Positions 1,919 to 46,661 of a stretch of DNA of 64,000 nt are shown here, one piece after another (position 1 is the stretch's first letter; each line of letters opens with the position of its first letter). This DNA is from Escherichia coli. Lineage in GTDB: Bacteria; Pseudomonadota; Gammaproteobacteria; Enterobacterales; Enterobacteriaceae. Below the pieces are notes generated by a model, which saw only the letters and a list, made by a program, of their open reading frames with translations, made no database searches and was not told the DNA's origin. A program made the translations under genes and the position numbers. The stretch is taken from the NCBI RefSeq assembly GCF_024298765.1, contig NZ_CP101210.1; one strand, written 5' to 3'.

Positions 1919-3271
1919 TTACTGCCCGGCGATTTTCATCTCCGGCAACAGCACAGAACCACACTGTATATTACTGCGTGTTTCAATATCGTTACCGACG
2001 GTGACAATATTGCGCCACATATCTTTTAAATTACCTGCGATGGTGATTTCGCTAACCGGATACTGAATTTCGCCATTCTCTACCCAGAAGCCCGCTGCAC
2101 CACGGGAATAATCACCGGTAATGGCACTCACGCCCTGGCCCATCAGCTCCGTCACCACCAGCCCGGTGCCCATCTCTTTGAGCATTTGTTCGAAGCTTAG
2201 CCCTTGTCCGGCAATCCGCCAGTTGTGAATACCGCCCGCATGTCCGGTGCTTTTCAGCCCCAGTTTCCGCGCCGAGTAGCTGGTCAGCAGCCACTGAGTC
2301 AGGATGCCATCTTTAATAATATCGCGACGCTCGGTGCGCACACCTTCGCTGTCGAATGGCGTAGAGGCCAGCCCTTTCAGCAGATGCGGATGCTCTTCAA
2401 TGGTCAGCCAGTCCGGCAGAATTTGTTTACCCAGCGAATCCAGCAGGAAGGTAGATTTACGGTAAACCGATCCACCCGCTATCGCCCCCACCAGATGCCC
2501 AAAAAGCCCGGTTGCCACTTCATTGGCAAAAATGACCGGCGCTTTCATGGTGGAGAGTTTACGCGGTGACAGACGCGATAAAGTGCGGCGAGCACAGTCG
2601 GCCCCGACCCACTCTGGCGTTTGCAGATCGCTCATCGCACGACCAATGGTGTAGGCGTAATCACGCTCCATATCGCCATTTTCTTCGGCAATTACACAGC
2701 TGGAGAGCGAATGACGCGTAGAGCAGTAACCCTGCAACATGCCGTGGCTGTTGCCAAAAACTTTGACACCGTAGTGGCTGTTAAAGCTGCCACCTTCGGT
2801 ATTGGTGATGCGTTTGTCCGCCTGCAATGCTGCCTGTTCTGCGCGGGCCGCCAGTTCAATGGCTTCATCCGGGGAAACTTCCGCAGGGTGGAACAAGTCG
2901 AGATCCGGTGCGTCAAAGGCCAGCAGCTCTTTGTCTGCCACGCCGGCACAGGGATCTGGCGAGGTATAACGGGCAATATCTAGCGCCGCCTGTACGGTGC
3001 GGGCAATGGCCTGCGGGCTTAAATCGGTAGACGATGCGCTACCTTTGCGGTTCTGGTGATAAACAGTGATCCCCAACGCGCCATCGCTATTGAATTCAAC
3101 ATTCTCCACTTCACCATAACGCGTGCTTACGCTAATGCCGGTGGTCTTGCTGACGGCAACTTCTGCACCGTCCGATTTGCCTGAGGCCAACTCCAGCGCA
3201 GTCGAAACTGCTTCTTCCAGAATCTTGCGCTGCGCTTCAACTTGAGAGATTACTTTCATTGCAAGTGCCAT
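1919..3271 (-). CDS. pmbA: Metalloprotease PmbA/TldE
   Basis: 450 aa ORF; conserved position between cybC and yjgA. Confidence 0.92.
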
Positions 3272-3364
3272 AATGTAGAGAGTTTCTCTGAAGTCTAACA
3301 GAGAACCGTTTTTCAGTGCGCATCTTAACTGGTAACATTAGCCTCTTTTTTTAAGGAGCCTGAG

Positions 3365-3916
3365 ATGACTAAGCAGCCCGAAGACTGGCTCGACGACGTT
3401 CCCGGTGATGACATCGAAGACGAAGACGATGAAATTATCTGGGTCAGTAAAAGTGAAATTAAACGCGATGCCGAGGAGCTAAAACGCCTTGGCGCGGAAA
3501 TTGTTGATCTGGGGAAAAACGCGCTGGATAAGATCCCGTTAGATGCGGATCTGCGCGCGGCTATTGAGCTCGCCCAGCGTATTAAGATGGAAGGTCGCCG
3601 CCGCCAGTTGCAGCTCATCGGTAAGATGCTGCGCCAGCGCGATGTTGAGCCTATTCGTCAGGCGCTGGATAAGCTGAAAAACCGCCACAACCAGCAAGTG
3701 GTGTTGTTCCATAAACTGGAAAACCTGCGCGATCGTCTGATCGAGCAAGGTGATGACGCCATCGCTGAAGTATTGAATCTGTGGCCCGATGCCGATCGTC
3801 AGCAACTGCGTACTCTGATCCGTAACGCGAAGAAAGAGAAAGAAGGGAATAAGCCGCCGAAATCCGCGCGCCAGATTTTCCAGTATCTGCGTGAGTTAGC
3901 GGAAAACGAAGGGTAA
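3365..3916 (+). CDS. yjgA: Ribosome-associated DUF615 protein YjgA (DarP)
   Basis: 183 aa acidic/basic ORF divergent from pmbA. Confidence 0.88.
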
Positions 3917-3942: not shown

Positions 3943-4047
3943 TGCCGGATGCGGTGCACCTGTAGGCCTGATAAGACGCATCAAGCGTCGCATCAGGCAC
4001 TATGCTCAAATGCCGGATGCGGCGTGAACGCCTTATCCGGCCTACAC
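3943..4047. repeat. REP/BIME cluster
   Basis: GCCGGATGCGG...CCTTATCCGGCCTACA units plus GGCCTGATAAGACGC...GCGTCGCATCAGGC unit. Confidence 0.8.
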
Positions 4048-10204: not shown

Positions 10205-10305
10205 TAGGCATGATAAGACGCGGTAAGCGTCGCATCAGGCTTCAGCGCACCACCGCCGGATGCGGCGCGAGCGCCTTATCCGGCCTACGAATCGGCATCA
10301 GGCAT
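10205..10305. repeat. REP/BIME cluster
   Basis: GATAAGACGCG...CGTCGCATCAGGC and GCCGGATGCGGCGCGAGCGCCTTATCCGGCCTAC units between ytfR and ytfQ. Confidence 0.8.
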
Positions 10306-19232: not shown

Positions 19233-19335
19233 ATGCCGGATACGGCGTAAACGCCTTGCCCGGCCTACAAAATCGTCCAAATTCAATATATTGCGGGGAC
19301 TGCGTAGGCCTGTTCGGCATAGCGCATCAGGCAGT
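19233..19335. repeat. REP cluster
   Basis: GCCGGATACGGCGTAAACGCCTTGCCCGGCCTACA and GTAGGCCTG...CATCAGGC palindromic units. Confidence 0.75.
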
Positions 19336-19509
19336 TTTTCATTTTTCAGCTGTCTGAATTTTAACCCTCTGGCGGCTTTACAGTACCTTACGCTATACTA
19401 GCCACTGAAAATGCCGGTTCACTTTCTTCGAATCGGCTTTCAATGTGTATTTCACACAAATTAATCAACTTCCCCTTCCGAGGATCTGGCCTGAAAGGTC
19501 GGATAAGAT

Positions 19510-22105: not shown

Positions 22106-22861
22106 TCATACTGGTAACGCTAGTTGCTTTTTTTTAAACGCCTCAATGGTTGATTTATATTTCTCGCAAATCTCCTCTTCGGTAATATCACTATCTACGG
22201 CCAGATTCGCACTTACTATCGCATCCACTTGTTCGGCTAATTCCACTTGTTGGCAACCTGCATTAACCAGAAAATTATAAATAAGAGAGTAATCTTCATC
22301 CTCCAAAACAACAGAGGAACCATTACGAAAACGTTCATCCCCTCCATAGATTTTAAGCGCAAAGCCCAAAGATTCTATGACTATGGCAAAATTATCATCA
22401 ATTATTTTTTCGTAAATATACCATCCATCGCATTCTTTAATTCCACCTCCTGGTATTTGGAGGTCAAATTTACCCCGTTTTAATTTACTTACTATATCAT
22501 CCAATACAGCATAACCTAAAGACACGTCACCAAACGCCTGGCGAATATAACCTTTAATCCTTTCCGGTATGTCAGACTGTTTTTTCTGCAGAATATCCCA
22601 GGCATACAATCTTCTGTTTTGTTCTAACGGAAACTCGCGGTTTTTGAAATCCATGAATGAGTTATACTCATTTATTGTTATGGGAATTTCTTCGTATTCA
22701 AATCCACTGCCTCGCAATGTCATTATATATTCGGCACCGTTATCTTTAAGGCTGAAACTGATAAGAAACTTATCCATGGCGTTAACAGTTTCATTTTTTG
22801 ATGAAAGTACCTGATAACTATTTTTATCAATCTGAGTTGCGCAACGAAAGAACTCCCTCAA
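22106..22861 (-). CDS. ytfI: Uncharacterised protein YtfI (AT-rich gene; 5' region apparently frameshifted, see findings)
   Basis: 251 aa ORF from a TTG start; reading frame stays open 43 codons further upstream and an ATG-initiated ORF in another frame precedes it. Confidence 0.7.
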   Translation of the reverse strand: MREFFRCATQIDKNSYQVLSSKNETVNAMDKFLISFSLKDNGAEYIMTLRGSGFEYEEIPITINEYNSFMDFKNREFPLEQNRRLYAWDILQKKQSDIPERIKGYIRQAFGDVSLGYAVLDDIVSKLKRGKFDLQIPGGGIKECDGWYIYEKIIDDNFAIVIESLGFALKIYGGDERFRNGSSVVLEDEDYSLIYNFLVNAGCQQVELAEQVDAIVSANLAVDSDITEEEICEKYKSTIEAFKKKQLALPV

Positions 22862-23227
22862 AGTTAACAGGCTATCATAATTTGAAGTCCAATCTTTTTT
22901 ATTAAATGCATGCTGGATATTGTTAAAAAATTGTTTGAATGTGTTTTTGTATGCGATGATTTTACGAATAACTCCACCGCACCAATAAAATTATTGTGTC
23001 TGATCCTGGGTAACATATGGCTACCTTATTTTATTTGGTTATTTTATGTCGCCATTAAATATCTCATTATAGAAGTAAACTATCAAAAAACGCTCATTAT
23101 TAAAATATAACTTATTAGTAATTGAATTTTTGCACTTTAAATACAATCTCTTTTTATTTATAACTTTTTAGGTTGGGAGAAATCAGGATGGCAGAATCAG
23201 GAAATACACTGTTTCTGCCATCTGAAT

Positions 23228-30704: not shown

Positions 30705-30958
30705 TTTATCTCCTGATTTATTAATTAATTGTCTATTGATACTTTTATTTCGGTACATAAATATTTGTTTGCAACTGAGACACAGCTATATACATATCCA
30801 CTTCATCTATCATCGGTACGCTGACCGTCAAAATAGACGCTGCGTTTATCGGCAGCGAAAGCGCCGAATGCCTGAAAACTGGCGGCATCAACATTAGGTT
30901 CACCGGATGGATTTTTCAGGACTTTGCCTGCCCAAAGGACAGAACGTCCATCGGTGAG

Positions 30959-31237
30959 TCAGGTATGCTGGCAATCCCCCTCATCATCGCAATCGAACTT
31001 ATCGGGATTAAAATCGGACAGTAACCGGGAATCTTGTTTATTGGCTAAATTGGCAATGCGCCAGAGGCGGGACAAATTAACGTCCGGCAGTTCGGAGAGG
31101 ATCTCATCTTTTTTCCCCTTCTGTTCGGCAACGTAAACAGTGCCTTTCTCCTGCTGGCGGTAATAAAAATCCGCGCCCCAGGAAGGTGAAATGGAGAGAG
31201 GTAATGCGGCGATTAATAACCAACTGCGCTTAACCAT
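30959..31237 (-). CDS. Hypothetical small secreted protein (signal peptide, acidic Cys-containing C-terminus)
   Basis: ORF 30959-31261; start taken at ATG giving MVKRSWLLIAALPLSISPSWGA signal peptide; C-terminus DCDDEGDCQHT. Confidence 0.5.
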   Translation of the reverse strand: MVKRSWLLIAALPLSISPSWGADFYYRQQEKGTVYVAEQKGKKDEILSELPDVNLSRLWRIANLANKQDSRLLSDFNPDKFDCDDEGDCQHT

Positions 31238-31321
31238 AATGAACTCTGCAATGAGTGGCAAAGATTCACGGTAAGCCCGCGCCTGGGGGGATGTCGATGA
31301 CGGTAAGTTTTTTTAGGAATG

Positions 31322-42960: not shown

Positions 42961-44228
42961 CTAAATTGCCCCCCTGAATGCCTCTGCCATTAACTCTTGC
43001 TCACGACCAGGTAATCGAAGACGCTCGGCAATGATTCGCCACTGACTGACAATCCCTCTAAAATTAGCAATAATGTCATCTGCTTCTGTCAAACCAAGTC
43101 GAAAATACTCCGCAACTTCTCGAGCTAATTCCAAATCAAGTGCATTATCATTTCTGTAATATTGAGTTTTAGACCGTCAGACCTGGCAACAGGATTCAAA
43201 TCATATGCCTCAGAAAGCCGCCAACCTTTTCCCGGTATCAAGATATATCCATGATTACGTAAATGGTCATCGGTATTAGAAACAAGAATATTAAAAACAA
43301 TCCTGGACCAGAGTTCCTTAAGGTCAGTATTAGTCTGCGCTCCATGTCTGATAAGAACATCTGCTAATTCCAGATAACTCACACCTGTAGAGGCATCTTC
43401 ACCATCCTGATGCCTGGTTAGTGTCATAGCCGAAGCAAAATGCAGACGCCTTCCCGCATTAGTGCGGTCAAAACGACGAACCATAAAACAATGGTAATTG
43501 CTGGCAAATTTATGCGCCTGAGCAGGTGCAACATTCAGTCCACAGCCAACAGCAAGTGCATTAACGACCATTTCCCATCCACCAACATCATACTCATCTT
43601 TTACACTGGGAAATTTAGCGATGTAGAGATGCCCAGCTTCATCAACAACACTGGCTTTCGGACGTGCCCCCCCTAATGATCCCCCCGGAGCGATTAGCAT
43701 TCTTAACCATTTTTGCCCCATTAGCTCTTTATTATCAGGATCTTCTTCAATTGCCCGGCTAGCCCTTTCCAGACTCGCTATTTCGGTAAATGGTGGGGCT
43801 GCAACATCAATGCGATTATCAAGAAACTCTCCAGCGTCTTCACGTTTGTATCGAAGAGCCCCAACCCGATAAAGATCATGAACACCTAGTAGATAATCAG
43901 ACTCATAAAGGTGGGAGTCTTTATCACATAACCCGTCTCGAATATCCCTCTCAAAACGACGCTTCATTAGCATACGCCCCCAACGATCCGGGCAGGAATC
44001 ACTAAATGCACCAAATTTATCCTTTGGAGGAATTGGGTACTGTGCTCCCTCATACAACATTATTTCAGGATCTAACTGAATGAAATTAAGTGAAGGATCT
44101 GCAAGCGCCTTTTTATCGTACTCAAACTCAAATATCTCACGCGTCCGAGTGCGGCGACTGTGTAAATAACCAATCCGCTCCGGACCATCCAGGCCTTCCC
44201 AATCCGCATACACTCCGATTAATGCCAT
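42961..44228 (-). pseudogene. HipA-family serine/threonine kinase toxin, frameshifted (367-aa ORF plus ~56 codons continuing in another frame)
   Basis: HipA motifs (APGGSLGGARPK, DDHLRNHG, AYDLNP); ORF stops at 43125 but frame continues to stop at 42961 after a 1-nt shift in an A run near 43151-43153. Confidence 0.7.
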
Positions 44229-44230
44229 AA

Positions 44231-44722
44231 TTAATTTCCTTTTAACGGTTTTTTTATCGGTTTTAATAGTGCTGCAAGAGAGGTTGATGTTTCTCCTGTA
44301 ATAGATGGCGTCGAGCCTTCTGCCAGTGCTGTTAAATCCGTGGTGAGATGACCTTCTTTCTCGTGCCTCATCTGCAATGAGGCTGTCTGAGAACCTTCTT
44401 CATTCTTACTTGATGCACGAGAAAGCCCTCTTTTTTTAATCAAACGGGAATCCTGGAGCTGACGCCCTAAGTCGTCTTCAGCTGCAAGCTTATTTAAATC
44501 CGTTTCCAGGCCCAAAACCTGCATCACAGACAAATATGCCCCTATCGTGACCCCTGCACTTCCTGACTCCAGAGAGCGCAATGTTATTGGCGACATCCCA
44601 GCACGTTCAGCAACTTGCTTTGCGGTAAGCCTGCGTCGTAAACGAGCAAGTTTCAGCCGCTCACCAAATTCACTAAGCATCTGATTCGTATAAGGGAGTA
44701 ACGGTGCTGTTTTTTTACCCAT
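44231..44722 (-). CDS. HipB-like XRE-family HTH antitoxin with long Ser/Thr-rich C-terminal extension
   Basis: 163 aa; [26 protein letters not shown]; stop 2 nt before hipA-like start. Confidence 0.75.
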
Positions 44723-46167: not shown

Positions 46168-46581
<414 letters not shown>

Positions 46582-46661
46582 TTATTCAGCCTCCTGTCTG
46601 GGTCAGCCGAATCCCGGGGAGGCAAGGAACGTGTTAAAGGTCGGCTGAAAAATGACGCGTT

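Follow-up and report, generated by a model that had tools for sequence, protein, structure and literature searches.

A probable genuine single-T deletion splits the accessory gene ytfI in an Escherichia coli strain

Why does ytfI, which close relatives carry as one coding sequence, appear as two open reading frames in the window, the 64,000-nt stretch of DNA analysed here, and if a base is missing, was it lost by the strain or by the assembly? The cpdB-cysQ-ytfI-ytfJ-ytfK region is present in the window in an orientation inverted relative to K-12, and the two frames lie between the convergent genes cysQ and ytfJ, the position taken by ytfI orthologues (Table 1). The frame that follows begins at a TTG placed 2 nt after the stop codon of the frame before it, and no SD sequence precedes this TTG. 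Upstream of the TTG, the same frame remains open for another 43 codons, back to position 22990 (FYWCGG...SLLT), and none of these codons is ATG, GTG or TTG. The shorter, upstream frame has what the longer one lacks: an ATG and, ahead of it, an SD-like motif. A re-reading of the ORF layout agrees in both respects with the initial annotation, which had described the start-less extension of the 251-aa frame and, in the frame offset by one nucleotide, an ATG-initiated ORF with a plausible ribosome-binding site.

Table 1. Positions in the window of the features of the ytfI locus and of matches to RNA families
Feature	Position	Strand	Description
ytfI pseudogene	22106..23016	-	native ATG to normal stop; 911 nt, compared with 912 nt (303 aa) in intact orthologues
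5' fragment ORF	22864..23016	-	ATG start, 50 aa (MLPRIRHNNFIG...); 30 native YtfI residues and 20 out-of-frame residues; TAA stop at 22866-22864
3' fragment ORF	22106..22861	-	251 aa, TTG start; native YtfI codons 53-303
SD-like TAAGGT(AG)	23021..23028	-	7 nt 5' of the ytfI ATG; conserved in orthologue alignments
Lesion, T6 on the coding strand (A6 on the + strand)	22925..22930	-	T7 in intact orthologues; -1 deletion, codons 30-31
U_UUU_UUA heptamer	22924..22930	-	made in the zero frame by the deletion (AAU UUU UUA); X_XXY_YYZ form
T4 run of the initial annotation	22987..22990	-	unchanged compared with intact orthologues; not the lesion
AT-rich ytfI segment	22017..23227	.	1.2 kb, 28-38% GC; between convergent ytfJ and cysQ
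Rfam matches above the gathering score	24035-24157 (-), 19269-19448 (+), 3965-4042 (-), 10207-10285 (-), 46561-46645 (-)		

Comparison with complete genomes places the lesion. A 1,181-nt query that covers the locus found matches in 1,622 of the 5,426 complete E. coli genomes, and the best matches, at 99.9% identity, span 1,182 nt and are thus one base longer than the query. In the closest genomes, those of strains 104 and D10, ytfI is a single 912-nt CDS that starts at the same ATG and encodes the 303-aa protein WP_000937651.1; the window gene is 99.9% identical to this intact CDS, with one gap. The gap falls in the run CAA-TTTTTTT-AAC, which counts seven T in the intact genes (T7) and six in the window (T6). 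Where the intact genes read N29 F30 F31 N32, the window reads AAU UUU UUA ACA, which changes the protein from codon 31. Inserting one T into the T6 run yields a product identical, residue for residue, to WP_000937651.1, the protein of strains 104, D10 and other close relatives, all of which have T7 at this place. Because a single inserted T reproduces a known protein exactly, the split of the reading frame is not a chance pattern. The indel is not a multiple of three and lies inside a mononucleotide run that differs by the same length (T7 to T6), as in a slippage-type frameshift. The initial annotation had likewise attributed the split of ytfI to a single-base deletion in an A/T homopolymer and had expected one added base to fuse the two ORFs into a protein of about 303 aa. 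It was right about the kind of lesion and about the length of the product, which is that of the CDS in the relatives, but not about the site. The T4 run at 22987-22990, where it had placed the deletion, consists of invariant columns in the alignment of the window with strain 104, WP5-S18 and K-12; it lies about 60 nt from the real site at 22925-22930, and a base added there would give codons 10-31 the wrong residues.

Does the segment upstream of the TTG belong to the gene at all? Orthologues that start at the equivalent of position 22861, with no coding sequence upstream, had been named in the initial annotation as the finding that would speak against a split gene. The orthologues start at the upstream ATG instead, and the ATG frame stays open in every intact allele examined. 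Between allele groups, dN/dS amounts to 0.10-0.18 for codons 1-52 and to 0.10-0.50 for codons 53-303; for the whole gene it is 0.10-0.47, compared with 0.03 for cysQ and 0.08 for ytfJ. As the intact gene is under purifying selection, codons 1-52 included, this 5' segment is coding and no less constrained than the remaining codons.

The relation to the K-12 gene, which we take to be b4215 (UniProt P39306), fits the assignment. K-12 ytfI shares with the window gene the position between cysQ and ytfJ, the ATG and the AT-richness, and the two are 95.8% identical over 909/911 nt, with 94% amino acid identity after repair of the frame. From the same ATG, however, the K-12 gene encodes 312 aa (WP_000937655.1), whereas the window allele is 9 codons shorter and carries the frameshift at codon 31 in addition. 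The shorter form is a property of its allele group, which ends in the TGA found at window positions 22106-22108; the K-12 and O157 alleles have TTA there and continue for 9 more codons to 312 aa. PGAP, the annotation pipeline of NCBI, uses the name 'protein YtfI' for the 312-aa form only and calls the 303-aa form a 'hypothetical protein'. A further length variant is found in strain LHM10-1 (301-1260), in which an in-frame 21-nt tandem duplication (KKQSDIP repeated) gives 319 aa. In the window, no uninterrupted ORF runs from the conserved ATG, the frame being shifted at codon 31 and stopped at codon 51. Judged by its sequence, the window gene is best described as a pseudogene of the ytfI orthologue group and not as a functional member. 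For the annotation this means a correction: one ytfI pseudogene replaces the 50-aa ORF and the 251-aa ORF.

How widespread is T6 at this run? GCA_017785835.1 shares the window's T6 and matches the window at 100% identity over 6,756 nt; it may be the window's own source and is hence perhaps not an independent confirmation. Four more contigs have the gene layout of GCA_017785835.1 and, judged by that layout, probably carry T6 as well. The complete genomes HCP5S3_I2 and LCP30S3_I5 carry T6 on another ytfI allele, flagged 'frameshifted' by PGAP. Their pseudogene has the same T7 to T6 deletion in the same run and is identical over the surrounding 70 nt, but it sits on a different allele and in a different lineage from the window (35 mismatches in 3,070 nt), which identifies it as an independent event. 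On a third allele background, T6 occurs in GCA_012773055.1, which is accompanied by three further contigs with the same product and gene layout. The change from T7 to T6 arose, in sum, on at least three ytfI allele backgrounds, the window's and two others. It is nevertheless very rare among the ~1,570 ytfI-carrying complete genomes: an exact T6 probe for the window's allele matched two of them, which form one clone. A T6 probe for the K-12-type allele found no full-length exact match among the matches listed for complete genomes, and a T8 probe for the window's allele found no clear exact match in complete genomes. Of 16 metagenome contigs, 15 have T7, and the remaining one, with T6, is error-laden. 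The exact 251-aa product occurs on 28 contigs, which we rejected as 28 independent T6 alleles: their 10-kb flanks resolve four different lesions, and T6 is found in one of the four groups, verified in one contig and probable, from the layout, in four. Gene callers report the exact 251-aa product on other disrupted ytfI alleles too, and the exact 50-aa upstream product has no record in the gene-call collection. Protein records of the 251-aa product, whatever the lesion behind it, include EEQ3582840.1, EEQ3661290.1, EET8881750.1 and EEW2253638.1. The lesion of the window has already been flagged 'frameshifted' by PGAP in other genomes, and it makes an ordinary pseudogene.

The initial annotation had left open whether the frameshift is genuine or a homopolymer sequencing error. 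In the case of an error, the strain would in truth carry a T7 run and an unbroken 303-aa ytfI, one base having dropped out in base-calling or in the consensus. The site is a 7-nt homopolymer, and such runs are a classic place for base-calling errors. T7 is present in dozens of complete genomes that match the window over 22 kb save for this single 1-nt gap (the near-identical complete genomes, with an identity of at least 99%, number at least 70 records), and on the window's allele T6 is absent from all of the closest complete genomes. One leftover homopolymer deletion per 64 kb would also be possible for a polished long-read assembly, and error-laden assemblies do carry T6 at the ytfI run: T6 is probably an error in CP051749 and in the metagenome contig VOFK01002334, each of which has several other homopolymer indels within 200 nt. 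It is this indel load in the surroundings that offers a way to tell a base truly lost from a homopolymer from one that the assembly has dropped. Over its 64,000 nt, the window differs from the complete genome of D10 by 9 substitutions and 1 indel, the one in the T run of ytfI. The window contains 24 homopolymers of 7-9 nt, and the other 23, among them two 8-mers and one 9-mer, agree with D10. With one indel in 64 kb and 23 other runs of this length unchanged, the signature of homopolymer errors is absent from the window. T6 is not a common systematic artefact at this run either, since it is so rare among the ytfI-carrying complete genomes, many of which come from long reads. The sole indel, the same T6 in another assembly (GCA_017785835.1, and probably in the four contigs of like layout) and the recurrence of the deletion elsewhere favour a genuine loss of the base. 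We consider it quite likely that the -1 deletion in the window's ytfI is real, and we regard a sequencing or assembly error as an unlikely explanation.

But what if the deletion is real and the gene still makes its protein? The heptamer created by the deletion, U_UUU_UUA, is the canonical -1 slippery heptamer known as the HIV-1 gag-pol motif; its register is the right one, and by slipping back one base the ribosome would rejoin the native frame at codon 32. Slippage of the ribosome at this heptamer, or an extra U added by RNA polymerase, could then give useful full-length YtfI, wild type or F31L, from what looks like a pseudogene, and the allele would be a naturally arising self-correcting frameshift instead of a null. 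The surroundings of the heptamer, however, argue against such recoding: no downstream structure is found (MFE -8.7 kcal/mol, compared with a shuffle mean of -11.0; z = +0.82), no SD-like element (GGAG-type motif) lies upstream of it, and the orthologues are single-frame, with nothing conserved as a recoding site. Efficient transcriptional slippage requires, to our knowledge, a run longer than T6. As measured in E. coli, even the best heptamers reach at most ~0.3% frameshifting when they lack stimulators, and U_UU.U_UU.A is missing from the motifs that were picked for exceeding 0.1% (PMC4066793). Programmed -1 frameshifting at ytfI was rejected for its lack of stimulators and of a conserved two-frame arrangement, and we find it very improbable that the gene is a leaky or recoded one, as well as that slippage in any form still delivers full-length YtfI. 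More improbable still is that the T tract acts as a contingency switch by which phase variation turns ytfI reversibly on and off. The appearance of T6 on at least three allele backgrounds would suit a switch, but the tract is only 7 nt long, T6 comes down to one clone among the ~1,570 complete genomes, with no T8 found on the window's allele, and the single metagenome contig with T6 is the error-laden one. In one allele group, moreover, the run is broken up (TTTTTAT), and nothing there points to compensation. Frequent tract-length polymorphism in both directions among close relatives, the mark of a contingency locus, is not what the ytfI run displays.

The frameshift is one of several lesions that disrupt ytfI. 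JM83 has a nonsense mutation at codon 62, a lesion different from the window's. In GCA_015339985.1 (305-2916), a ytfI remnant is directly preceded by two neighbouring genes, one for an ISEcp1-type transposase and one for a beta-lactamase. The junction corresponds to window position 22944, ~72 nt into the CDS, and the T7 run is intact; judged by the ISEcp1 inverted repeat, the end of the insertion sequence abuts ytfI where GAATCTAGG meets ACACATTC. Here the insertion of a resistance gene into the chromosome would have killed ytfI, independently, on the same allele. Also on this allele, GCA_011813425.1 (1-197) and 14 similar contigs have an additional T at ATTG^GTG in codon 12, at about window position 22981; the contigs of this group all stop at one point, 17 nt before the ATG, and this shared end hints at a repeated element inserted in the promoter region. 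ETEC1738 (2718-3797) has an IS1-associated deletion, with IS1 standing in place of ytfI and of the ytfJ 3' end, and ISKpn26 at the 3' end of ytfI alters the C-terminus in GPEC657 (2119-3099). Many draft assemblies on two allele backgrounds break within the first 45 nt of ytfI, with contig ends at the equivalents of window positions 23010, 22973 and 23001. These breaks within the 5' end of the gene probably reflect IS insertions.

What kind of gene decays in so many ways? The ytfI segment, at 28-38% GC, stands out from its neighbours at 50-57% GC, and a sensitive blastn search found the gene in 1,621 of 5,426 complete E. coli genomes (30%). In LR-46, the one ytfI-less genome examined in this respect, cysQ and ytfJ converge and have their last 11 nt in common (1031-1041), which means that the 1.2-kb ytfI segment sits exactly between two gene ends. 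According to Higashi et al., ytfI is a strain-specific segment bound by H-NS, which K-12 has and SE11 and SE15 lack (PMC4720273). The sole functional hint in the literature searched is that overexpressed ytfI was a hit for HOCl resistance (PMC8228696). Neither Pfam nor NCBIfam has a match for YtfI, and a phmmer search of 1.84 billion cluster representatives brought up nothing beyond fragments and variants of YtfI, which means that no homologue is detectable outside its group. Matches in PADLOC (Cas6b, E = 4e-4, 40 residues) and in PHROGs (E = 2e-3) are weak and partial and were treated as chance. The AlphaFold2 model of YtfI, built from a shallow 8-sequence alignment, was unusable (mean pLDDT 39). 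At the locus itself, promoter-like and terminator-like matches occur no more often than shuffled sequence would give, and no Rfam family overlaps ytfI. Elsewhere in the window, the Rfam families matched are ES239 sRNA between cysQ and cpdB, ES036 and STnc450 near msrA, two naRNA4 and the rpsF leader.

The window holds other decayed genes. A HipA-family toxin gene at 42961-44228 (-), adjoining its HTH partner at 44231-44722, is also broken, its ORF stopping at 43125 after 367 aa. In this interval the window is identical to D10, whose gene PGAP marks as 'frameshifted' with an annotated extent to 42961. The interval 30810-31238 (-), between cycA and a gene for a 355-aa hypothetical protein, corresponds to D10 RG43_RS29910, a short remnant annotated as a pseudogene, with an internal stop and its C-terminus missing; the D10 sequence is otherwise identical.

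For ytfI, the nature of the site leads us to infer that the strand slipped during replication of the T7/A7 run in codons 30-31, which probably produced the -1 deletion and would have left this strain and a few close relatives with a pseudogene in place of the 303-aa gene. A ribosome that starts at the native ATG would make 30 native and 20 missense residues and end at the UAA at 22866-22864. The remaining 251 native codons, having no ribosome-binding site of their own, would yield at most traces of product, either by reinitiation at the TTG 2 nt past the stop or by rare slippage of the ribosome. As ytfJ is convergent to ytfI, no polar effect on a downstream gene is expected. The loss of this accessory gene is probably neutral or nearly so, given its AT-richness, its lack of homologues beyond its group, the H-NS binding reported for K-12 and its absence from most E. 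coli.

Finally, we would like to place this lesion in the context of the gene as a whole. The various other inactivated alleles, by nonsense mutation, ISEcp1, an additional T, IS1 and ISKpn26, show that the gene can be dispensed with, and ytfI is a dispensable, uncharacterised accessory gene under modest purifying selection that decays repeatedly. Against this background the frameshift carries little biological weight: it is another decayed copy of a dispensable, poorly expressed gene without known homologues. Within its lineage, the exact T6 site could serve to mark a small clone.
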